From positions 1 to 33,505 of the forward strand of contig KZ539103.1 in the NCBI GenBank assembly GCA_000934665.2: DNA of 33,505 bases. The letters run 5' to 3'. Positions within the stretch are counted from its first letter, which is position 1. Each line of letters starts with the position of its first letter. This document shows positions 5,619 to 33,505 of the stretch, piece after piece. The notes under the pieces were generated by a model that was given only the letters and a program-made list of their open reading frames with translations, was not told where the DNA came from and searched no databases. The translations under genes and the position numbers were made by a program. The DNA comes from Catajapyx aquilonaris (taxonomy: Eukaryota).

Positions 5619-5985
5619 TTACTCTTCCTTTTTTTCTGTTCTGGTTGTGCGAATTGGAGATCTGCTACACCTGATCGCCCTTTTGAGTATGGATGAGCCT
5701 GGTCGGTAAATAGATCTCAATCTATCGTACTCCAGAATAGCTGACTCTTGAGCCTTGATGTTAGTAAAGGAGGCATTGATGAGATGCACTCCGTTGATAC
5801 TTTTAACTCTGGAAAGAGCCACGTAGGCTTGACCGCACGAGAAGACAGAGGAACCATTATCGATGAGTGCATTAGTGAGACTAAGGCCATGGCTCTTGTG
5901 TATGGTAATGGCATATGCCACACAAATTGGGAATTGTTGGCTGTACACATAGGCTGTGATGAATTCGAATTTTGTATTTTAGGTA
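5619..5985 (-). pseudogene. C-terminal PIF1-family (SF1B) helicase fragment of a Helitron/Helentron Rep-Hel protein
   Basis: KFEFITAYVYSQQFPICVAYAITIHKSHGLSL...VFSCGQAYVALSRVKSINGVHLI contains PIF1 motifs V/VI (QFP...A.TIHKSQG.SL; GQ.YVALSR). 5' truncated. Confidence 0.9.
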
Positions 5986-19415: not shown

Positions 19416-21550
19416 CTTTTTTTAATTTTTATTATTTACTATTTATTTTTATTGACCAAGGAACCAGCAGTAAATGGAACAGGTTGGGTGAGCTGGGGTC
19501 GCAGGGAGGGGTGGGCAACCAATCGACTTATCGTGGAGGCATCCGGTGAGCTGGATGTAGTAAAGACTGGGGCCTCTCTGCGTTTCCCCACTTTTCCCCC
19601 CTATTTTTGCGCCCAAAGAAGCCCTCTGGGCTCAACTGGACCCTACGATCGCAAGTGTGACCAGGCCGGTGAAGGCAATTTCGCATGTCCAACCAACGCA
19701 GCGTCTTCATGACAGACCCATGAAGCCTGCTGGGCAGCTCACATTAACACAATTGGGTGTTTTAATTTTGTCCCAGATAATCCCACTGTCCTGGTAGGGG
19801 ATGAAGAGCTCTGAACCATATTGTGTGGTCCATCGTTGGAGGTACACTTCTTCTAGGTCCCCATAGAATTTTCACAGGTTTCACTTGGTTGCAGCCATCA
19901 TAATTCATACCCAGTCATCAGCCTGCGGCTCTTTAGGGGGGAAGTTCATCCCAATTTTTGTTTTGACTGGAACTCTTTGCTTTCATTTTTACTTTGCTTT
20001 TCGGGATAGGATACTCAGTCAGTGAACTAAGAGCAATCTCCATGTTTCCCTTCTGATATGATCGTTACTCTCTCAGCCATTAGGAAGATATTGCCCTGAG
20101 AAAGTTCACACACCTGCCATTCTATGGAAAGTGACTTCAATTGAGGTGTAATAATGCAGTAATTCATGTGCCAATTCCTGTCCGCCTCTCGGGAGGTTCT
20201 ACAGTAGGTTGTTTCGGTGTGTTGGTCCATTTGTGTACAAAGAGGCACTAGCCGGGCCACCTATTTTACAGTTGCAATACTAATAACTGCAATAAGTGCA
20301 ACACGTGCAAAGTTGGGCATGTAGCAATTGTTGCAGCATACCTTACTGTTTGATTGTTGTTGTTTGATGTTGCACCTGGATGACTGTCCATCCACCTCCA
20401 TCAGTGACCATGTCACACTACACCTGTACTTCTCACAGTGATGAGACAACAGGTAATATAACGCGTGATTTCTCTGCAGATTGTATGTGAAATGCTTGTC
20501 TTACTACCAAGGAAACCAAAATACCTCATGATCAGCGCCGTGGACCAGGAAGACAATCGTCATACTCAGTCGGTCTGAAGCTGGGATGGCACTTCTGTAA
20601 TTCGTGTCTTGTTTGGTGATGTATGGCCTGAGAAGACACAAAAGATAAGATCATACTCGACACTCTGCAAGATCAGTTCTGTAGTATGAATAACATACCT
20701 CTACAACCAACTAGAGAGTCTGGCACAAGTGACAAAAGATGGTCATAGGGCTTTGGAGTCCTCCGCATGAACCTATTTTTCTATGGATTGACTTGTTACC
20801 TACTCAGTTGATTGTGCATAGGATCCAAGTCTTTTCCGTATACAAACTGCGAGACTCCATCGTCTTAATGAATAGTAAAAGTGTCTATGCTCACAGAGGA
20901 AGCTATTTCCCTGGCTCTCTAATGGTCTGTGATGTTATACAGTTAAATTTTTCACAAACTACAGTCTTGCAGAGTAATCGAGCAATTACGTGGTGGGTTA
21001 TGTATGGTGTTTGTAAGAGATTGGCCTTGATTTCTGATCTTACATGCAGGTCCTCTGTTGCACTGGGTGAGGATTCAACAAACGCAAGAGTAAATGATGA
21101 AGAATGCGTTCTGCAATGGTGTGTGGACTGTCTTAGTTCTTGTTATCCCTCAACTTATCGAATTCAGTTCCCACACTTTGGCCCAGTGTTGACGGTGAAA
21201 TTGACAAGTCCTTTATAACATTGGCCAGTCGGTTGTTCAGTCTAGTGTTCCGTATCGCGTGATCGTTAACTTGACCTAACAGGCTTGTTTGTTTTTCTAA
21301 TAAGTGAAATGTCCGCCTTCATGTCATATTGAGGGGTTTCGAGATTTCTGTTAAAAGAAAATTGGCTATAGCACATGGTTACCTGGACTTTAAAGTACAT
21401 CAACTCTTATGGCTGTATGAACTGAAGTATTTTACTGTTATTATTATTCGTGTTATTAACATTCCGACTCTTAGGCTCACGATCAAAATGAAGTTAATCA
21501 AATTGGTGAACTTAATTATTTTGCCAATATGATACAGGTGGTAGGGGTGG

Positions 21551-22224
21551 TGTCACGGATACAAATTTTAGGGGGTTGTAACCCCCCCAAACAAGCAGAG
21601 AAAGTTCATTTATTCTCTCAACAATAATTCAGGCTAGGGGAACAACGTTCCTCTCAAAAGGGTTCACAATAATGCTGGAAGGGTTAATGGACGGCTAGGA
21701 AGGGCAGACTTACAGTTCAAACAAGCCTGAATAAACTCACCCAAAATATCACAAGTGAGAATCCAATACATTTGGTTCCAACCACCAAAAAAAGGCACTT
21801 CTCGCACGAAAGCACTTTCACTAGCTTTCAACTCCAAGCCTCAATTTCACCAGGGCCCAATTGGAGTGAAACAAATGGGAACACTAAGCACTCACTCACA
21901 GGTGAACACAATGGCACAACTCTCCTGGTTGAAAAGATGATCCCGAAACAGGGACGTCACGTCGAATTTACCAAAAGGATTAGGACGACAACTTCAACTC
22001 CAGAGTGTGCCTCAGATGAGTATTCCTCCACGTATCCGTAAGGAACACCCTCCCAAAACGGTACAATTCACTCCCCAAATGGTGAAGGTAAACGTGTACA
22101 ATTTTCCCACGAATTACCCACTTCCAACTTCACCTGAAGAATCCCAGTAGACAATCCCCACTGGTCCTCAGGGGAGCCCCCAAAAAAGAGACTAGCTATC
22201 ACTAGTCCTCCAGGCGTTACTGAG
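21551..22224. mobile_element. Possible LTR-like fragment abutting the truncated ankyrin copy A
   Basis: Starts TGTCACGG. AATAAA on the minus strand near 21610. A/C-rich LTR-like composition. No second LTR terminus or TSD found. Confidence 0.3.
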
Positions 22225-23000
22225 CTTTAGCAACCCCTTGAGCATTTCCTGGCAGTCGTGGTAGGCGGCGAGGTGGAGGGCCGTTTCCCCGTCTTTGTCT
22301 GTGGCCTCCAACTCCGCGCCCTTCTTCAGTAGCATCTCAGCCATTACCCAATGACCAGTCATTGCCGCCATGTGTAAGCCTTGGACATCACACACATTTG
22401 GCCACGTAGGCTGATCGTGTGAGTTCATCATCACACGTGGCACTGACGTCTGCACCTTTGGTCAGTAAGTGCTTGGCTATGCCCAAGTGGTTATTGCTAA
22501 TGGCGCCGTGAAGGGGAGTCATCCTTTGGAATCCAGGATCATTCACGCTGGCACCGGCACCAAGGAGGGTCTTCACCACCCCTTTGTGCCCGTGCCAGGC
22601 CGCCCAGTGAATGGGCTGGGCATCCCTCTCGTCACGGGCCGACACGTAATCTGTCGGCCCGTTCTCCAGCAATAAGGAACATGCCTCAGCATGCCCGTTT
22701 TGGGCAGCCCTGGAATAAACCAAGATAAGATAACGATATAAACCATGATAACTTAATGCAATGTTGAATAGCAGCAATTCACCTGTGAAGGGGTGTGGCC
22801 TTGGTCCTCTTGTCCCCTACGGTGACATTACAGCCCTTCTTCAACAGGTACTTCAACACATTGCTGTGCCCGTTGGCCGCGGCTTTGTGGAGACATGCTT
22901 CCCCAAACTCGTCCTCTGCGGCCAAAACTGCCCCCTCGCTGTGCTTCTCTGTCAATTCCTTGAGCACGTCCAACTGGCCTTCCAATGGGGCCTCTAGCAT
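22225..23000 (-). pseudogene. Ankyrin-repeat protein, copy A (exons 23003-22783 and 22709-~22225; frameshifted and 3' truncated)
   Basis: TPLH/ANK motifs (GEACLHKAAANGH, ATPLHRAAQNGH, QPIHWAAWHGH, MTPLHGAISNNH, GETALHLAAYHD). 73-nt GT-AG intron 22782-22710. Frameshift at 22390. Homology to the paralogues stops at 22225. Confidence 0.9.
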
Positions 23001-23062
23001 GGCCTGGGTGAAGACCAACAGTCGCATGTTAGTCTACATATGTTTCACAGACTTCACAGTGT

Positions 23063-23550
23063 CATGCGGCTGATCATCAATATTAAAAATGGGTCCAAGT
23101 ACATCAAAGTAGGCCCAGATTATCTCTCGCTAATGCCAGATTCTCCCTGTTCTCACTGCAACCAGAAAGTCATGCTTGATCTCTACCATATAATATACGA
23201 CTGTCCAGCTTTCACACCCCCACGTAACACGTACTTATACGCATTCCCACCTGCACCAAACTTACACTTGGCTACCATGGCAAGCAATATACATGGTAGC
23301 AATTTCGATAACTTACTTAATTTTCTCCAAACGCAAATAAACGCATGACTTTTTTTACTTACTGAAGCATTAAAGATGCATATGAACGACACAAAGTCCC
23401 GGTGTATGAAAAATGCCTGCCTTTTTTTCTCCTATTTTCTTTTTTTTTTGTATATGTACTAGCACCACATTGTAATTATGTAAACCCGATCCGTCTCCCC
23501 CTAATGGTCCAATGGGGTAAAATCAAATTAATTAATTAAAAATTAAAAAC
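23063..23550 (+). mobile_element. 3' end of a non-LTR retrotransposon (CCHC knuckle, 3'UTR, AATT-rich tail)
   Basis: CSHCNQKVMLDLYHIIYDCPAFTPPR is the C-x2-C-x9-H-x4-C knuckle typical of LINE ORF2 C-termini. Stop at 23348, then a tail aaattaattaattaaaaattaaaaa. It replaces the upstream region of ankyrin copy A. Confidence 0.8.
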
Positions 23551-23564
23551 TTAATGCAAATTAT

Positions 23565-24440
23565 CTACTCCACATGAGCCCGTCGCCGCTTCCCACTTCT
23601 CTGGCGATTGCTCAACTTTCTCTTTTCTGCCCTTATGTATAGGTGGCAACCTCATTGTGTTCGTTTGCCTCGGCCAGATCCTCTGGCTTTTTGCATTTGG
23701 TCGTGGTGGAGGTGGCCTCCATGTCGGCCCCCTTTTCCACCAAGAAGGCCACCACATCTTCGTGGCCACGATAGGCCGCCACATGCAGAGGGGTCCACCC
23801 ATCCACAGTGGTGGCCTCCAACTTGGCCCCCTTCTCCAACAGCAACCCTACCATGGCCTTCAAACCATGGTAGGCCGCCAGATGGAGAGGGGTCTGGCCG
23901 GATTTGTTTGCGGCTTCCAAGTGCGCGCCCTTCCTCAGCAGCAGCCTGACCGTCGCAAGGTGTAATGGGGTCTCCCTATCCTTGTTTTCCGCTCCCATGT
24001 TGGCATTTACCTTCAGCAGTTCGCGCACCATTTCCACGTGGTTACAGTAGGCCGCCAAGTGGAGGGCCGTCTCTCCATCTTTGTTCTTGGCCTCCAGCCC
24101 CGCACCCTCCTCTAGCAATACCTGGGCCATTTCCACACATCCTGTTGTAACTGCCACATGAATGGCCTGGATGTCCAATAAACGTTTTGCGGGGTACGCC
24201 GACCTTGTTACTTCGTCGTCACAGCGGGCGTTGATGTCGGCACCGTTGCGCAGTAACGACTTTTCGATTCCTACATGTCCACTACTCACCGCGCTGTGAA
24301 GCGGCGTCATCTTGTGGTATCCGGGGTTGTTGCTGCTGGCACCAGCGAGGAGAAGTGTTTCCACCACCTCCTGGTGCCCATGCCACGCGGCCCAGTGAAA
24401 GGCCTGGACGTCAGAGATTCGTTTCCCAGGGTATGTCCAA
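23565..24440 (-). pseudogene. Ankyrin-repeat protein, copy B (5' truncated; ~7 repeats; late frameshift)
   Basis: ORF 23633-24472 has canonical repeats (GETALHLAAY, GQTPLHLAAYHG, GWTPLHVAAYRGH). In-frame 6-codon deletion versus copy C (LHLA/TVRLLL). A 2-nt TA duplication at 23640 removes the basic tail, whose restored stop is at 23565-23567. Confidence 0.9.
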
Positions 24441-25574
24441 TCTATGGATGCGTTGTAATAATCTAAGTACACTAAAACTCACCGGTCTACCGATAGGAGG
24501 GTTCTGCATAAAATAAATGGTGCACTTACCATATTCCTTAACGGACCTGTAAGTGGCACATAAATAGGTCCGGAGGGGTAATGAAATCTCAGGCTCTTTC
24601 CATCCCACTTGTGCTTCGCCTGCACCACAGGGGTGTGGAGCGAATTTTGGTAAGCTTGCACGTACTGGAATCTGAAATTAGGGCCAGTAAAAACCACCAC
24701 TAGTGATATCTGAACATATTTGACCATGTAAACCCTCAGGAAATAAATTTTATAAGTAACAATGGTCATGCCATAAGCCTGAGTTCTACATGTCTCAGGA
24801 GTACCTTGGGTGAGGCAGATGCTGAAGGTGCTCTTTGAATAAATGATTAATTTCAACCTCAAGGTCCTCCTGAGTGGCAGTTTCACACCTGGTGAAGCCA
24901 CTTGAGCCTCTTGGTCTGATGTAATAAGACCCTCTTGCCTCGAGGCAAAGTCAACTGCCCATGCTTATCAAGTCTCGTTGGTACTCATGGGCAGTGACAG
25001 ATCTCCTTCTCTGCTCTGCGGAAAACTGAAAAGCAAGTGGAGTGCATCCAAGTCAAGCAAAACTTCATGAGGGTTACATCTAATTGCATTACATCGACAT
25101 TTTTACACTGATGTTCTCTCTACGGCGAAGAGATTCATCATGGCGTTTGTTGGTCTCAAAGGTAAAGTAGCAAAAAACAAACATCCCTCATTTGAAGTTG
25201 TACATCGTAAGTGCTAAGTATCTTCTGGCAAGAATATATTCTGTAATTGATGCATTTCCATTCCCTACAAGTTGAGTTTGTTCCATATGTGTGTACAAGC
25301 TCTTCTGATGCTGGGGGGGGGGGGNGTTTGGAAGGGCGTATGTTTACGTACTTTTCATGACACTTAGGCCCGTAAAAATGCACGGGTGGGATCTCACCTG
25401 TCTGCAAGGAGACCCTCCGCTGCAGCTAGGGGGCTGGGCTGGACACGAGACGGGGCAGCGCAGGGGCGGATCCGAGGTCCGACAAAATAATGCTGCTGTG
25501 GTCCACCCACACCAGCCAAGACAAAGCCTCTCACAGTCAGACGACTCCAGCTTGACTTCAGCAACCAGTCAGGT

Positions 25575-25980
25575 GTCACATCAGTGGGTTCTGGCGCTTG
25601 TAGTCCCTGGTTGGTTCGCTCCTGCACAATTGGAGGTGGCAAAAACCTATCAGGTAGAACCTTTAACAAAGAACTTCTCCATGGCCGACAACAAGATTCA
25701 TTATGGCACTTCACAATCTGTAGAAAATACTGGCACTCTCAAACATGCTCTGCCTTCCACTGAGAATCTGCAAAACGAAAAGAAAAAATTATACTATGAT
25801 AACATTGACAAGAAAGAATACAGAACTGTAGTCGACATGATTTCAAAATTCACAAAAGTGAAAATGAACTTTTCCTTAAACTGTCATTCAATACCTTTTT
25901 CCATTTGCAGCGATTCTTCTGATTCTTCTGGCAAAACATAATGTGCCATAACTGGAAAACCATCTAATACAGATTCAGAC
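25575..25980 (-). pseudogene. Intron-containing fragment of a DDE transposase C-terminal region (Zator-like, tentative)
   Basis: Splicing a GT-AG intron 25894-25768 gives SESVLDGFPVMAHYVLPEESEESLQMEK-DSQWKAEHV*ECQYFLQIVKCHNESCCRPWRSSLLKVLPDRFLPPPI. I recognise the 'IDG.PV.A.Y...HVR.SQY.LQIVKC...CC...R....RFLP.P' pattern of a widespread transposase-derived family. TGA sits at the expected Arg. The Zator label is from memory. Confidence 0.55.
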
Positions 25981-26049
25981 ATCTATGCCTGGGAAACTAA
26001 TGCGCAATTTTATCAAGTCTTGGGGGCGGAGCCCTGTACGATATTTCAA

Positions 26050-26400
26050 CAGGACTTCCACAGAATTGGGTTAGATCGCGTGAGAAGATCTTCCAGTCCA
26101 CGCACGGTCATCTTATCATTGGCCAAGCGCATGCTGGGCAGTTTGGGGCAATTTGTGGCAAGAAAGGAGACATTTGTCACCTACTCCTTGGGTTCTGTCC
26201 AAGGCAACTCTTTCGAGTTTGCGAACCGCTGTCTGTAGAGAGAAGAGCGAGTCGACCCACCCCATGCCAGGATTTCCATTCGACTGCATATACACTGCAT
26301 TCAGATCAAGCCGGCGGAGGTTACTCTGGCCCAAAAATGAAATATTTCGTGCGGAACCCCATATTTGCAAGTTCCAAAAATAATACATTTTCAAACTCCA
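26050..26400 (-). pseudogene. Leucine-rich repeat (cysteine-containing, FBXL/AMN1-type) gene fragment
   Basis: NLRRLDLN...KLERVALDRTQGVGDKCL [frameshift ~26165] LATNCPKLPSMRLANDKMTVRGLEDLL fits the LRR-CC consensus V.D..L..LA.NCP.L..L.L.....T..GL..L. Confidence 0.6.
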
Positions 26401-26634
26401 TGGGATTACATTAGCGACCACATATAATGACATTGAAGTGTGTAATCAGTTTCTAGACCTTTTCTCATTCTTTCAGGGAGCATGTGAATCGATATATCGT
26501 AACCTAGGCAACGTATCGATGCCAGTATCGGCTTGGGCGATAACATCATGGCGGCCTATGACGCTCATTGCAAACATGTCCAACGTCAGGAATAAATTCC
26601 ACAGCCCAGCTGCACCCAAAGTACAGAGCGGAAG

Positions 26635-27580
26635 GGGATATGGTGTCTTTCGGCAACTCTCCCGCCCCTACCAATAGCTCCGGGAACCTTTTAGGATCAA
26701 GAGCAGAGCAGTCTTTCAGCAAATCCTTGTTGGGGGAGAAACGATTCCGTAAGCCCTGTATAACCTGGTCAACTATGACGAGAAAAGACAATGGTTGGAA
26801 AGTGATCCTCTTGAGCTGCAACTGCATTCGGGCCACGGTCTCTTCCGATTGCATGAAAGTTTGAGGCAATCTCCACATCCAAACCCTTTCCAGAAAGTCT
26901 TTTATTCACAGCATTTATGTAGCGTCTTGCCTTTTTACGGAAAGCAGTCCCGCAGTTTTCCCACTTTTTAAAGCAAGCTTTCTACCAATGCAAATGTTAC
27001 CTGATAATCAATGTCTGGTGATTGCCTTGATTTGGAAACTGGCGTGCTTTCTTTGAATATATCTTTCATGATAAGGGCAGTCAGGATTGTCTCTATCTGC
27101 ACCATGCATGAATGAGTGTGCCGGCAGAAAATGCAGCCTTAGACTCAAACGAGGGTGACGACTGTATTTCACTCATACATGCTAAGTAATCTACTAGTCT
27201 ACTGTTTTGTTCATCCCCAAGTTCGTCCTGTTCATCTGTAACCGACAACAATGCGGCCGGCTTACTCCACCATCGCGTAGCACCAATTTTCTTCAGTTTT
27301 CTTAATTTATCATGGAAAGTGCTGGAAGCGTTAACGAATCTTAACCACACCTACATTCGCTTGTGCGAGTCAGAAATAAATACCGCCCCAGTTTCAACCA
27401 AACCAAATAGTTTTTTTATTTCTAAGCAGGAGGTAGTACAAGTACTCAGACCTAAATTTAAACAATGGCCATCAGCACAATGAGGGAACATTACATTCGG
27501 ATTATCGGCTTTGAGCCTTGTCTGTACCCCTTTGTAGCATCCAGACATATTATACGCTCCATCAAAAGAACATGCTATAG
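26635..27580 (-). pseudogene. Degenerate hAT transposase (ZMYM1-like/Tip100-type) catalytic and insertion domains
   Basis: FDGAYNMSGCYKGVQTRLK...HC..HCLNL, KLKKIGATRWWSK, D..IQ.LRNRF...ALDP. In-frame stops at ~27351 and ~27093 plus frameshifts. Confidence 0.9.
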
Positions 27581-27796
27581 TACGGCGGCTTATTGAAGGT
27601 ATTATGCACTTCGAGCCAAAAGCGATTTAAATTTTTTTTTCGTGATGTACGCACCAAAAGGAGCATTTTGAGGGTTGGAGCCACCTCCAAAGGTGTCTGG
27701 TAATATTGTTGTACACCCCCGCAAAGTTTTATATGTGGCATAAGTGATTAGGTTTGCATCAGATTCCCTCTACATTGGCTAGAAGATGACTTATCA

Positions 27797-28245
27797 TTAC
27801 ATATCGCCATCCTTGCTCTCCTGACAACCACCACACTTACAGAGTGTCGTGCAGGGAAGACCAACCTTGATGCAACCACAGCGCCTTGTGCAGGACTCAT
27901 TACGTCCACATGAAATAAGAGATCGGCAGGCTTCCCTGCAGGTGGCAAAGAAGTCCATTTGACCTGAAATATAAATGTCATATTAACATGGCATTAGATA
28001 TACAAGTGCTTAAATTCGTAAAAAGTTAATTTTTTATAAACGAATGAAACTTACGATCCAAATCGGAGACGCTGGACTCGCTTCCATCCATCCACATTCA
28101 GCAAGATCGGGTAGTTTCGGATATTTAACAAGGCTTTGCCCCCAAACATGCCTAGCTTGATATGCTGCTCGTAGGACGTGTAGGTGCAAGGCATCTTGAG
28201 TCGGTGGAATATTTTCTATATCCCTGCCTTTGTGGGTGACCAGGT
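27797..28245 (-). pseudogene. C-terminus of an Academ-type transposon protein (post-XPG region plus Cys-rich CXC/Cys8 finger), two exons
   Basis: IENIPPTQDALHLHVLRAAYQARHVWGQSL...ECGW, then a GT-AG intron 28054-27964, then VKWTSLPPAG [frameshift ~27930] ACRSLISCGRNESCTRRCGCIKVGLPCTTLCKCGGC...stop at 27797. Confidence 0.75.
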
Positions 28246-28398
28246 GCTTCAGCATTATTTTTAAAAACCATACGTTCTTACTTAGTACTCAGACTTTGGT
28301 TAATGTACATAAAGAATATAGATAACATATTATTATCGATATTGAATATTCTATGGGTATGGTATATAAAATAATGAGTCTTTAAGTGTAACTTTTTA

Positions 28399-28745
28399 TC
28401 ATCCGTCCATGTCTTCTCCGGGTTGGTATTCACACGTGGCCAGGTAGTCATCTTCGACTGACCATTCAATATTATTTCGGTGACACCAATAATCATAGTA
28501 TTCATCTTCTTCATTTATTCTAACCCACGCTTCACATCTTTGTCCGTTTATAATCTCATAACCAAAATCGAGATAGCAGCCATCTATATGATCTTCGTCA
28601 TATAAATTGGCAAATTCAGTACCATCAAATTCAAAAATCGCATCATCTAAACAGTAGTCCCATTTATCGATAAATTCATCGTCATCTTCATCCCACACGT
28701 CATTCAGAGCGTAGCTATATCGAAAGATATATCCCAGGCGGGATA
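28399..28745 (-). CDS. Orphan acidic, aromatic-rich ORF (~115 codons open, no upstream in-frame ATG), function unknown
   Basis: VWDEDDDEFIDKWDYCLDDAIFEFDGTEFANLYDEDHIDGCYLDFGYEIINGQRCEAWVRINEEDEYYDYWCHRNNIEWSVEDDYLATCEYQPGEDMDG. Strongly biased D/E/Y/W composition and AT-ending codons unlike the GC-rich ankyrin genes. Confidence 0.5.
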
Positions 28746-28799
28746 TATCTCATGGGCGGGGCTCGATCCCGTGCTCCCTCAGACGCCCTCTTACGGAAG

Positions 28800-29730
28800 C
28801 CCCGAAGGGTCAACCACAAACACTCTTCTTTGGGGACAATCTTTCTCCCACAGGCGCAAACACAGTTGAGCCGGGTGGAGAGAGGGGGCGCTCCCTAAAT
28901 TTGGGAAGGGGCTGAAAATGAACTATTTTTTGGCGCATTTTTTCAGTTCGTGGTTCCAAGTACACCAAACAGCAACTCCTACACCTTCGACAATGGCTTA
29001 TTCCTAACACATAACTAACTAACCCATCACCAAACAGCAACCCCTACACCTTCGACAATGGCTTATTTATTCCCTTACACATCCATCTATGTACATTTTG
29101 TACAAGTTAAATAATCAGGGAGACATGACACAAACCTGCTTAACCCCAACACTAATGTCAAACCAGTCAAAGAAAGAAACCCCACTAGTTCTAACAAAAG
29201 CTCTACCTTCTTTATACAATGACTTTTTGACTTGTGACCCGCTTAACTCTTTCCATCAAGCCTTTCCCTGGTACTGTACACTAAACTACTGTACAAACTA
29301 ATTCATTCATATACCGATACATCACGGTTTTCCCAGCGGGGTGCCAGTGGATAATGTGGAACGACCGAACAGGTCCTCCTTACACTCACATGGTCATTAA
29401 CTTATATACTAAAAGACATCAACAAACAAAACAACCCCGACACCGGTTCCCCCGTGGAGACCAGAGGGCGAAGGGCGCCTTTAAACAAACATACACATGT
29501 GCACACACTTCCAGTTGGGGGTGGGAGTGGGGGTGGGGGTGGGGGTAAAGGGGCACTAAAACGCGCGCACACGCACACGCACACAGGCCCATCTGCACTG
29601 CATCAGCACTCCTCTTGTGTCTTGTGTCATTTCGGAGATTGTGGTTGCCTTAGGAGGGATGATCCTCGCGTAGCCGCGCGTAGCATACTCCGAGCGGTGA
29701 CGCCGGCCTGGACCNCCCCCCACATCGAGT
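28800..29730 (-). mobile_element. Probable 5' part of an LTR retrotransposon (LTR remnant, PBS, 5'UTR)
   Basis: Minus strand ...tcgttccACA (29355), an 8-nt spacer, then TGGCACCCCGCTGGGA (29346-29331), resembling a tRNA-Arg primer-binding site. GT-rich UTR-like sequence follows. The distal LTR end is not defined. Confidence 0.45.
28963..29067 (+). repeat. 40-bp direct repeat x2
   Basis: caccaaacagcaac(t/c)cctacaccttcgacaatggcttatt at 28963-29002 and 29028-29067. Confidence 0.9.
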
Positions 29731-29829
29731 GAGTGATGGGTACTAAATGCTCTAATTAAATGCTAAATACTAACTACTGCATAAAAATGTAATTAAATCC
29801 TAAATGCTAAATCTAGCCTAATGTATATT

Positions 29830-30100
29830 TCCAGACCTACCACACTGCAAGATATCCGGGAAAGCAAAAAGATTATGGGTGGAGTAACTTTGGTTTCGAC
29901 TGGGGACTTCAGGCAGACATTGCCTGTTGTATATAGCGCGAGGCACACGAGCCAAGGTTGCCTCAAGCCTTCTTATGTCTGGACTCATGTTACTAAATTC
30001 CATCTCTCTACGAACATGAGGGCCTATTATTTTGCTTGGTGACCACTCCTCAGAGGAATTTGCACGTGACCTGTTAAAATTAGGAAATAGCCAATTTAGA
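29830..30100 (+). pseudogene. Helitron PIF1-like helicase internal fragment (motif III-IV region)
   Basis: LQDIRESKKIMGGVTLVSTGDFRQTLPVV...CLKPSYVW..V.KFHLSTNMR, then after a frameshift EEFARDLLKLGN. Confidence 0.9.
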
Positions 30101-30225
30101 ACCGATGCCCTAGGAAAAGAATGTTGACATGGGATTGATCGGTACAAAGGTGTCCCCTGTCGACGAATGAAATTTTAAGTCTTTTCCAATACCAGAGACA
30201 CAGTTGGTTGTGTGACAGAGCAATA

Positions 30226-30845
30226 TTAACTCAGAAAAACAACGCCGTCCCTCTCTACTTCAGGTACGCAAAAAACTAGTTTTGTTTGGCCCATTACAGT
30301 GGGAGAATTACGCATCTCTCTATGGTGAACTGTTAATTGGACTTTTGTTGGGAAATGGTCTGAACCAATATAGTCTAACACTTGGAAATCTGTAACCGAG
30401 GCAAGAGCATTCAAGGATACCACTATGTAGTCAATCACCGATTGGCCTCCTTCACAAGAGTTAAACAATGTGTGTATTTTGTCAAATGGTACCCTTCTTA
30501 CATCATACAGATAACGTTTGCGAGGAGATCTAAAGAGAGGACAGACGTAAAGTAAATGGTATAGGTTGAAGGTTTCTCTAAAATTACATAATGGGTATAA
30601 TTCCTGCCCCATCCAACCTATCTTGTACCCATCACATCACAAATATAAATTATTGCATCTAAGATTGATCCACAATCTAAGCAAATGGACGGGAAGAGAC
30701 ATGCTGCTATAATGCTGACGTAGGTAGGTGGGGTTAAGGTCTAAGTAATAACTATTTGTCGAGGATGCTGCCATATTTAGGTAATCTTGTTGAATTGAAT
30801 TATCTATAAATGTTTGCAGTAATCTTACCCATCGTGCCTTCCAGA
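30226..30845 (-). mobile_element. Non-LTR retrotransposon ORF2 fragments: C-terminal region/knuckle joined to an APE endonuclease C-terminus
   Basis: YPLCNFRETFNLYHLLYVCPLFRSPRKRYL (degenerate CCHC) followed in frame by GQSVIDYIVVS...SDHFP (APE motifs). Confidence 0.85.
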
Positions 30846-32075
30846 CTAGTCTGTGCGTCGCCGCTTCACACCTCTCTGGCGATTGCAAAACTTTTTCTTT
30901 TCTGCCATGATGTAGGAGACAACCTCATCGTGGCCGTTTGCCTTGGCCAGATCCTCTGGCGTTTGGCATTGGGTCGTGGTGGTGGTGGCCTCCAGGTCGG
31001 CCCTCTTCTTCACCAGGAAAGCCACCACATTTTTGTGGCCACGATAGGCCGCCACATGCAGAGGAGTCCTACCATCAGCAGTGGTGGCCTCCAGCTTGGC
31101 CCCCTTCTTCAAAAGGAACCGCATCTTGGCCTTCTGGCCATGGTGGGCCGCCAGATGGACTGCGGTCTGCCCACCTTTGTTTGCAGCGTCCACCTGGGCC
31201 CCCCTCTTAAGCAACAGCCTGACTACAGCTGTATGGTTGTGGGAGGCCGCAAGGTGTAGCGGGGCCTCCCCATCAACGTTCACGGCCCCCATGTTGGCCC
31301 CCTTCTTCACCAGTCCTGCGACCATCTCCAGGTTGTTGTGGTAGGCTGCGAGGTGGAGGGCCGTTTCCCCCTCTTTATTTGTGGCCTCCAGTTGTGCCCC
31401 TTTGGCCAGGAGCATCTGGATCATCTCCCAGTTGCCCGTGGTGGCCGCCAAGTGTATGGCCTCGAAGTCGAGATGGGTTTCCCAGGGTACGCTGCCCTGG
31501 TCAACTCGTCGTTACATCTGGCGTTGATCTCAGCACCGTTGTGGAACAACAGCTTCGCTATACTACCTACATGGCCACCGCTGACGGCGCTGTGCAGGGG
31601 CGTCATTTGGTTGAAGCCGGGATCGTTTACGCTGGCACCGGCACCAAGGAGGGTCTGCACCACCTCCTTGTGCCCATGCCAGGCCGTCCAGTGGATGGGC
31701 TGGTCGCCCCTCTCATCACAGGCAGACAAGCTGGCCTCGCTGCCAATGAGCAGCTTGCATGCCCCAACATGCCCGTTTTGGGCAGCCCTGGAATAAACCA
31801 AGATAATGTAACGATATAAACCATGATAACTTAATACAATGTTGAATAGCAGCAATTCACCTGTGAAGGGGTGTAGCCTTTGCTGTCGTGTCTGGCACGT
31901 TGACGTCGCAACCCTTCTCCATCAGATACTGCAGCACGTTCTTGTGGCCATTTGCTGCCGCCTTATGGATGCAGGCTTCACCCAAGTGGTCCACTGCGGC
32001 CAAACCCCCCTCCCCGTGCTCCCTTGCATGTCCCTTGAGGACGTCCAACTGTCCTTCCCATGCAGCGTCCAACAT
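30846..32075 (-). pseudogene. Ankyrin-repeat protein, copy C (most complete; ~10 repeats plus a basic NLS-like tail; single frameshift)
   Basis: Acceptor cag|GCCATG at 32078, exon 32078-31861, 73-nt GT-AG intron 31860-31788, exon 31787-30846. 1-nt deletion at 31470-31471 versus copy B (atc tc gac vs atc tct gac). Ends KKKFCNRQRGVKRRRTD-stop. Upstream donor GAT|GTGAGT at 32178/32177. Could be an intact gene if the indel is an assembly error. Confidence 0.9.
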
Positions 32076-32289
32076 GGCCTGGGTGAAGACCAACAGTCGC
32101 ATGTTTAATACATAATTATGTTTCACAGGCTTCACAGTGTAGGTCTAGGCCTATACACAAAAGCATAGGCTACTCACATCAGCTACTCCTTCGTTCAGAG
32201 ATGCAGGAGCTGCACAATTTTCACAGTTGGGTTCCTGTTGATGATAATACAAGTATTCTATAATATTAAAATGCTTGCGTTGCACCTTG

Positions 32290-32435
32290 CACGTATAATC
32301 CCTCTGATTGGTCCGCCCCCGTATTGTTGCCGCCACCTCTTCCCATTGGCCCCCGTCCATTGTTGCTGCGTCGTATCCATGGCGCATTGTTACCACGACG
32401 CCTCCGATTGGCCCCCGTTCCGAGCATGCGCAATG
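32290..32435 (-). promoter_or_regulatory. Candidate promoter of ankyrin copy C: three CCAAT boxes, a GC box and an NRF1-like site
   Basis: ATTGG at 32307, 32345 and 32407, each followed by (tccg)cccccgt. TGCGCATGCTC near 32422-32432. TTATA near 32295. All oriented toward the gene. Confidence 0.6.
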
Positions 32436-32577
32436 GGGGTGGAACACGTCCAGTTGCCTGCTGACCTCCTTGGGAGAAGGTCGCTTTTTTTTCGTCTCTC
32501 CCGCCGCCGTCATCGTCCCCCTGCCGGACCTTTACCCCTTCCCCACCTATGCTACCTGTCCCCCCTTCGCCACGGCG

Positions 32578-33505
32578 TAGGGTGACCAACTTTTTACTGG
32601 GCCAACCCGGGACATTAAGCTGCTTATTAATAAGCTGTTATAATAGCAGTTTTTTATAAGTTAATGAAAATACATGTTTCATATATTAGATTATTTTAAG
32701 GTTCAGTCTGCTAGAGTGATATATAGGCCCAACCTGATACACATCCTCACCAGAGCCCAGATGACAGAGGTTGAGAGGTGACAAGTTCAAGCAATAATAA
32801 ATACAGTGAACCCTCAATTTTCCAGTTATCATATCTTTCCAGACAAAATTCTGGATGACCTTAACACCAATTCACAACCATCTTGTCTTTTCTTTAACAT
32901 GAGGATAAAACTTAATACTAATGACAATCATAGAGAGTCAGTGTTAAATATATCTGAATATTGACATGCAACCTTTTCAATCTTTCTGTTTCCCTTTCCA
33001 ATAATACTTATCTGACCTGGCTGCAGCTTTTAGAACATCTCTCTTGTCTTTTATATAATGGTAAAACTGAAGACAGTCGAATTTTAAATTAACTTTGACT
33101 TGCAACTCTGCCCTCATCAAGCCCACATTACACAGATTCCTGGTATCATTCCAGTGAGACGCCATCATGCTAAATATTCTTTCCACAAAAGCATTTGCAC
33201 AAGGAATACTTAGAATCTTGCTTATAAGCAACAACAGGTTTTTGAACTTGTATGAATTACTCTCCAGTTCACCAAAAATGTCCACCCATTTTTTTGTCTA
33301 CTGCTTTGTCGGGGAAGGCCATTTGATTGTCCGTGAAATGTTTTGCATCAATGAATTCATCGTATAGGCTATCCATATCCAATACGTCCATCATTTTTAG
33401 ACACTCAGATGCACTTTGGATGTCCTCATAAGTCAAGCTTTTTGTTTTCAGCGAACATGGTGTCAATGCACATAGGTAATTTGAATTTGTAAAGGCAAAG
33501 TTTGA
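32578..33505 (-). mobile_element. 3' end of an hAT (Blackjack-like) transposon
   Basis: Terminus TAGGGTGACCAAC...CCCGGGACA at 32578, ~400 bp beyond the transposase stop. The element runs off the window. Confidence 0.8.
32977..33505 (-). pseudogene. hAT transposase C-terminal dimerisation domain
   Basis: LYDEF...VDKK [frameshift in T7 run ~33290] WVDIF...NLLLLISKILSIPCANAFVERIFSMM..HWNDTRN...ELQVKVN..FDCLQFY...SDKY. Confidence 0.92.

Follow-up and report, generated by a model that had tools for sequence, protein, structure and literature searches.

Two short introns of an ankyrin-repeat gene family in Catajapyx aquilonaris were nearly identical among old paralogues whose exons have diverged strongly. 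The window we analyzed, 33,505 nucleotides (nt) long, is the entire contig C2324 (GenBank KZ539103.1) of the 286-Mb assembly GCA_000934665.2, and holds three copies of the gene, A, B, and C, all on the minus strand. Intron e (63–73 nt) showed 95–100% identity at aligned sites among four paralogues located on three contigs (A and C in the window, and single copies on contigs C5091 and C2705) plus one allele, and intron d, on the other side of exon 2, repeated the pattern. The best single account, to which we assign a probability of about 0.5, is intron-biased ectopic gene conversion, from which selection or mismatch would have kept the exons out. The introns were most likely copied repeatedly between genes.

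Divergence of introns and exons among the paralogues

Copies A and C differed at 3 of 73 positions in intron e, compared with 29 of 70 four-fold degenerate sites in exons 2 and 3 (Fisher p = 4e-8). The three differences had been pointed out in an earlier sequence-only reading of the window, as had the exact identity beyond the intron (14 nt of the upstream exon and 20 nt of the downstream one in our count) and the near-identical upstream acceptor block common to A and C, and our counts confirmed them. The other deep pairs gave 0/63 in the intron versus 39/64 at four-fold sites (A–C2705, where the A intron additionally has two 5-nt insertions), 1/63 versus 37/65 (C–C2705), 3/63 versus 36/69 (C–C5091), and 3/63 versus 40/67 (A–C5091). 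Over the five pairs, 0–3 of 63–73 intron sites differed versus 41–61% of four-fold sites (Fisher p from 4e-8 to 7e-16); intron distance did not track synonymous divergence (dS) across the family. Between C and C5091, intron d differed at 1 of 67 sites, flanked by exon 2 and by a linker exon with 20/57 differences.

The paralogue split was shown to be old and the exons to have diverged under purifying selection. Coding dS among the deep paralogues was 0.68–2.0, and the ratio of non-synonymous to synonymous divergence (dN/dS), calculated over whole exons, was 0.13–0.46 and typically ~0.2 in all 10 exon-by-pair values. No similarity was found between the 3' untranslated region of C and those of C5091 and C2705. 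The sequence-only reading had put the amino acid identity of exon 2 between A and C at 48/73, and the aligned count was 48/71. It had also reported that 10 of 12 conserved codons in GEAC(L/I)HKAAANGH differ at the third base, which was right by eye, but the motif is a hot patch (motif versus rest of exon, p = 0.002, post hoc): the whole-exon counts of differences were 20/47 for third positions of conserved codons and 12/23 for four-fold sites. Its description of synonymous sites as almost saturated was somewhat generous, the NG86 proportion of synonymous differences (pS) in exon 2 being 0.58 and dS ~1.1. The exon differences between A and C (9 transitions, 20 transversions) were transversion-rich and non-directional. 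CpG-type hypermutation of the exons was rejected, the differences being transversion-rich and T>C-biased, and coding function of the intron was rejected because no frame withstands the 10-nt length difference between its 63- and 73-nt forms.

In genome-wide searches, intron e and the acceptor block turned up five times, in A, C, C7645, C5091, and C2705. Contig C7645 was ~96–97% identical to the window flanks over 4 kb and is read here as the other allele of C. The distant members C1000/C993 and C7603 have introns of 57 and 408 nt at the intron-e position; the position is therefore ancestral and no mobile intron is needed. Mobile, Introner-like introns occur as the same intron at unrelated sites, in positions absent from outgroups. 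Such an element was rejected, since the five exact intron matches in the genome all fell within the family (two further matches elsewhere had two mismatches each) and the outgroups share the intron position. Fragments of the family were found as copy B and on contigs C11069 and C9038. Only C2705 had both exons open among the four paralogues; A, both alleles of C, and C5091 were frameshifted or stop-bearing, so that three of the four copies are broken. The C2705 gene has additional upstream ankyrin and linker exons, while a search for upstream exons of A, B, and C found none, a match on C2188 being a shared 924-nt repeat.

The rooted exon tree was (C1000/C993, ((C5091, C2705), (A, C, B))). Exon 3 supported it strongly; exon 2 could not place the root, but rejected trees that part A from C. 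Within the genome, intron and exon trees were topologically compatible, so the signal lies in branch length and not in topology. An orthologue search gave 463 matches at E <= 1e-30 among 7530 candidates; the best 120 were generic ankyrins of 24–46% identity, and no close relative outside the genome was among the matches listed.

Slow introns were rejected as a general property of the genome. In an ankyrin-kinase family, exons were 74–83% identical and introns were unalignable beyond their ends, which differed by 0.28–0.30 versus 0.19 at four-fold sites (21 non-independent pairs of 7 exons). Introns of the Pirh2 copies tracked four-fold sites overall (20/445 vs 4/64, 70/400 vs 15/94, 35/560 vs 9/104, and 78/388 vs 20/96), with two short introns showing just 0–2 differences among three copies. 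Other introns shared by C5091 and C2705 differed at 4/58, 7/60, and 24/144 sites, with 7/44 four-fold sites in the adjoining exon, and introns of neighbouring genes differed at 17/72 and 6/66. An unrelated NACA duplicate (C1693:9350–9457 vs 27330–27437) shows the same signature as the ankyrin paralogues. Its UBA exon differed at 47 of 108 nt, with third-position differences in 10 of 16 conserved codons, while the flanking introns were ~90% identical (5/57 and 19/190 different) and the borders lay at splice sites. The NACA duplicate is a patchwork of 70–97% segments, as conversion predicts.

Read-derived contigs from four of the five listed sequencing runs were compared with the assembly; runs X1–X3 come from one sample, which may be the source of the assembly, and run X5 barely covered the genes. 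They matched 21500–22719 (A) and 30794–31797 (C) without a difference or gap, and the frameshifts of A and C are thus real. The contigs ended at 22719 and 31797, 10 nt inside the intron and each with its own exon 3, because the shared 39-nt junction makes the assembly graph branch. Nothing in them pointed to introns collapsed by the assembler, an artefact that the sequence-only reading had considered.

Gene conversion and competing explanations

Under gene conversion, the copies would be long-diverged paralogues of an ankyrin-repeat gene with several exons, the family would evolve by birth and death, and patches would be copied ectopically among its members. Patches on introns d and e, either side of exon 2, would be neutral and would have persisted; in exons, which differ in roughly one residue in three, patches would have been purged or blocked by mismatch. 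The homogenized introns would then be the last near-identical islands and so be kept as the preferred substrate. A and C, which are 9 kb apart, would additionally share a tract that reaches into the exons by 14–20 nt. Dedicated machinery for diversification would not be needed.

Exchange of sequence in patches within the family was shown, with conversion as its probable cause. The alleles of C differed at 48 of 396 sites in one block of exon 3, compared with 115 of 4066 in the flanks (p = 1e-14), and at only 5 of 218 sites (~2%) in exon 2; they are broken at different places. Four-fold differences between C5091 and C1000 were 6/44 in the upstream exon and 17/41 in exon 3. The ~11 synonymous sites in the exon flanks shared by A and C were all unchanged (P ~0.002). 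Intron e differed between the alleles of C at 3/73 sites, which is about background. In the outgroup C1000/C993, the 57-nt intron at the same position differed at 21–24 of 57 sites; there is therefore no family-wide constraint on it.

Several observations weigh against conversion. The islands are 63–99 nt long, and pairing for conversion typically needs a few hundred similar nucleotides, as stated in the text of PMC3924837. Two of the partners sit on other contigs and may be unlinked to the window. Identity of A and C with C5091 and C2705 ends at the splice sites, and synonymous differences persist 7, 9, and 13 nt away from them, at positions that a tract could overwrite without altering the protein. 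The two introns of C carry six insertions of 4–14 nt and only 2–3 substitutions relative to C5091 and C2705. Judged by an indel clock from allelic or close-copy DNA (9 indels of at least 4 nt per 231 mismatches, part of it coding DNA), the insertion count looks consistent with the synonymous age and not with a recent reset (P ~1e-3 at the most lenient ratio). Inserted bases varied at 5 of 42 sites versus 3 of 130 in the core (p = 0.02 in a hand tally that is sensitive to alignment). With compatible trees, topological proof of conversion is absent, and an identical-run test (not GENECONV) in exon 3 was significant in none of 8 pairs (best p = 0.054, A–C). A test on one allele pair of whether the divergence/polymorphism ratio is lower in the intron than at synonymous sites gave p = 0.013 for exon 2 alone and p = 0.23 for exons 2 and 3 together. 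The short islands, splice-site borders, and insertions favour long-term preservation of the intron cores, by selection or by repeated very short templated repair.

Purifying selection on the cores of introns d and e, which would have arisen in this clade or been lost in the C1000 lineage, is a serious though considerably less probable rival. Candidate elements would be splicing controls close to a weak donor, an internal promoter together with a start, or an antisense or DNA element; substitutions would be purged and small insertions between motifs tolerated. The coincidence of the conserved stretch with the intron borders is as expected from constraint, the insertions fit the synonymous clock (~3.5 expected from 9/231, 6 seen), and core bases barely vary while inserted bases do. 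Compared with A, the intact C2705 had 0/63 differences and the broken C5091 had 3/63. The last 27 nt of intron d, with an in-frame ATG, are present in all four copies and may be coding plus splice signal. However, two introns of a dispensable family would need to be under constraint at almost all of their bases, divergence of the outgroup intron was normal, and no reading frame is kept across the 63- and 73-nt forms. Pairing between introns d and e was not significant (45 of 500 shuffles were as good), and the intron ends of the control ankyrin-kinase family diverged beyond its four-fold sites. Mirtrons and small nucleolar RNAs are recognized by a stable hairpin or an Rfam match. The intron showed no structure (z of +0.73 and +1.25), formed no stable hairpin, and matched no Rfam family, the sole match in 21500–33505 being a 28-nt piece elsewhere at E = 2.3; an intron-encoded structured RNA was thus rejected.

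A still less probable explanation reverses the contrast: A and C would be young duplicates of a C5091/C2705-like gene, and their exons, not their introns, would have been accelerated or overwritten. The source could be spliced cDNA or older paralogues, whose introns would be unrelated and would end the tract at the exon borders; strong selection on codon usage is another possibility. It would account for the three comparable introns of C all being near C5091 and the three exons all being far, and for A and C branches ~6 times longer at third positions. GC content at third codon positions was 0.68–0.73 versus 0.47–0.55 with intron GC unchanged, and of the ancestral T sites, 11 of 19 in copy A and 8 of 20 in copy C carried a T>C change. 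In a captured 87-nt fragment of A exon 2, all 4 differences fall within 10 nt (P = 0.003). However, only 2 of 8 synonymous relative-rate tests on both exons together were significant (A only, with C1000 as outgroup), where composition bias is possible, and the combination of open frames and dN/dS of ~0.2 is in keeping with slow ordinary divergence. Genome searches turned up no donor exons, the A–C differences are transversion-rich and non-directional, and the surplus of intron insertions would stay unexplained.

A splicing-aware, RNA-templated process that sets the divergence of duplicates by exon or intron status in many genes of this genome seems improbable. Excised intron RNA would repair paralogous introns, or spliced cDNA would overwrite exons. 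Such a process would explain the splice-site borders, the too-short islands, the untouched insertions, and the NACA recurrence.

The sequence-only reading had proposed conversion that homogenizes non-coding anchors, possibly as part of a cassette system, or a constrained intron. Homogenization by conversion has become the leading account and the constraint alternative stays, but cassette diversification, in which conserved intron anchors would let exon 2 swap between ankyrin genes and diversify binding surfaces, found no support and is very improbable. A single exon lies between the two conserved introns, and the ankyrin repertoire of the genome is large (150 of 759 candidates were scored, and at least 100 of these matched), as such a system might use. 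Yet exons 2 and 3 both group A with C, no swapped exon 2 was found among the four paralogues, and trees with swaps were rejected (approximately unbiased test, p = 0.013 and 0.002). Between the alleles of C, exon 2 is near-identical and the variation lies in exon 3, whole-exon dN/dS between deep paralogues is far below 1 with no sign of positive selection, the anchors are at only five places, and three of the four genes are broken.

Assembly collapse, or a single chance conversion between A and C, is the least credible reading: shared stretches longer than 31 nt do break short-read graphs, and X1–X3 may be the assembly's own source, but collapse would not be expected to yield five different forms of the intron, each with its own substitutions and indels, read-derived contigs carry the separate exon 3 of A and of C into the same junction, and the pattern covers two introns on three contigs.

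Gene copies and other features of the window

Table 1. Parts of the three ankyrin gene copies, with positions in the window.
Feature	Positions	Strand	Description
Copy A exon 3	22240–22709	-	Frameshift near 22395; unrelated sequence ends the exon near 22240
Copy A intron e	22710–22782	-	73 nt, GT..AG, phase 2; splits the ankyrin motif TPLH/xAA
Copy A exon 2	22783–23003	-	221 nt, open frame, ankyrin repeats
Copy A intron d, surviving 3' part (acceptor region)	23004–23062	-	ATG in frame with exon 2
Copy B, 5'-truncated paralogue	23580–24410	-	Exon-3 part only, without either intron
Copy C exon 3 to stop codon	30846–31787	-	Frameshift near 31470; contains the 12% allele-difference block
Copy C intron e	31788–31860	-	73 nt, GT..AG
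Copy C exon 2	31861–32078	-	218 nt, open frame
Copy C intron d, complete	32079–32177	-	99 nt; versus C5091, 1/67 aligned sites differ, plus four insertions of 4–14 nt
Copy C short linker exon	32178–32234	-	57 nt; 20/57 sites differ versus C5091
Copy C intron c remnant	32235–32280	-	Lies before a high-copy repeat; its similarity to C5091 is intermediate, with 4 mismatches over 28 sites and one 9-nt gap

From the GT-AG borders, the restored frame, and the outgroup introns at the same position, we infer that the introns are spliced; removal of intron e joins TPLH in frame to xAAQNGH. Pfam matches in the family proteins were ankyrin repeats only. The exons do not correspond to single repeats: exon 2 is 218–221 nt with phases 0/2, and exon 3 holds many repeats. 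Intron d has an ATG (23004–23027 and 32079–32102) that shares the frame of exon 2 in A, C, C5091, and C2705 but not in C1000 and could be a start allowing translation of 5'-truncated copies. Among the small intron insertions (in 31788–31860, 32079–32177, and 23004–23062), several read TA-NNN-TA or are short tandem duplications, and they may resemble Tc1/mariner excision footprints.

At the start of copy B (24410–24440, minus strand), a second copy of the clade-specific YP-x-K linker precedes the first repeat, which suggests an internal rearrangement before the truncation. The allele-difference block of C (31240–31660 versus C7645) reached 12%, with dS of 0.23 and dN/dS of 0.26 over the first part of exon 3. 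At C3998:1429–1662 (L116), 150 nt of window 28593–28742 (98%) are fused to 87 nt of A exon 2 (22875–22961) in one open frame; the A part is 83/87 identical, with its four differences inside a 10-nt span of the GEAC motif. This chimera looks like a gene-fragment capture, and because of it a 22958-to-28593 joint appears in all four compared runs. In another ankyrin gene (L047, C2482), a 55-nt tandem repeat of ~13 near-identical copies at 395–1137 is intronic between ankyrin exons.

Positions 32933–33505 are part of the 924-nt repeat, shared at 98% with C2188 and C7645, whose translation is presumably hAT-transposase-like. A helicase fragment at 5622–5978 (minus strand) gave a weak Pfam helicase match (E = 1e-4), and a second putative helicase fragment at ~29840–30100 may resemble a PIF1/Helitron motif. 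The repeat pair 190–1205/10647–11622 had no gene-like structure and was unusable as a control.

Comparison with known systems and significance

Introns more alike than synonymous sites are already known from closely related tandem pairs, and here the contrast is found at dS of ~1 or more. The primate L/M opsins are described as undergoing intronic gene conversion with exon divergence kept (PMC3213168), and they and a second primate duplicate pair are treated likewise in PMC3924837. As in the opsins, paralogue intron divergence is below both synonymous and non-synonymous exon divergence (PMC3213168). The values given for the opsins are a synonymous divergence of 6.1–6.4%, introns of 3.0–3.3 kb in total, and a tandem pair ~24 kb apart (PMC3213168, PMC3924837), in contrast to islands of 63–99 nt, four paralogues on three contigs, and lineage-specific intron insertions here. 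Conversion of the opsin type would have the exon differences kept by selection for distinct function; in the ankyrin family, dN/dS of ~0.2 shows past, not distinct, function, and three of four copies are broken. The family is best filed as a probable case of opsin-type intronic conversion, extreme in depth and island shortness.

Frequent exchange is also said to homogenize introns in lettuce RGC2 and other Type I plant resistance genes, which are likewise a repeat-protein family with many broken copies, according to the account in PMC9406545. Unlike the Type I genes, described there as having high Ka/Ks, the ankyrin paralogues have dN/dS of ~0.2 and exon orthology that is not obscured. In Argiope MaSp2, small near-identical introns occur in an arthropod repeat-protein cluster and intergenic conversion has been proposed; these introns are reported to be iterated within a gene and to diverge fast between genes, with exons homogenized too (PMC9779670). 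Exon shuffling in brown-algal ROCO leucine-rich repeat genes, proposed as diversified immune receptors, is described with one 72-nt phase-2 exon per repeat and diversifying selection (PMC11378527). Neither holds here: we found no one-repeat exons of symmetric phase, no diversifying selection at the level of whole exons, and no swapped cassettes. The literature searched, which left out most subscription papers, listed no case of such depth with introns so short.

With the NACA duplicate, the contrast extends to an unrelated gene in the same genome. If constraint is the cause, two short introns would conceal a so far unrecognized element. If conversion is the cause, it would act on homology that is far shorter and more isolated than is commonly supposed, and introns would be an unreliable guide to the age of duplicates in this genome.

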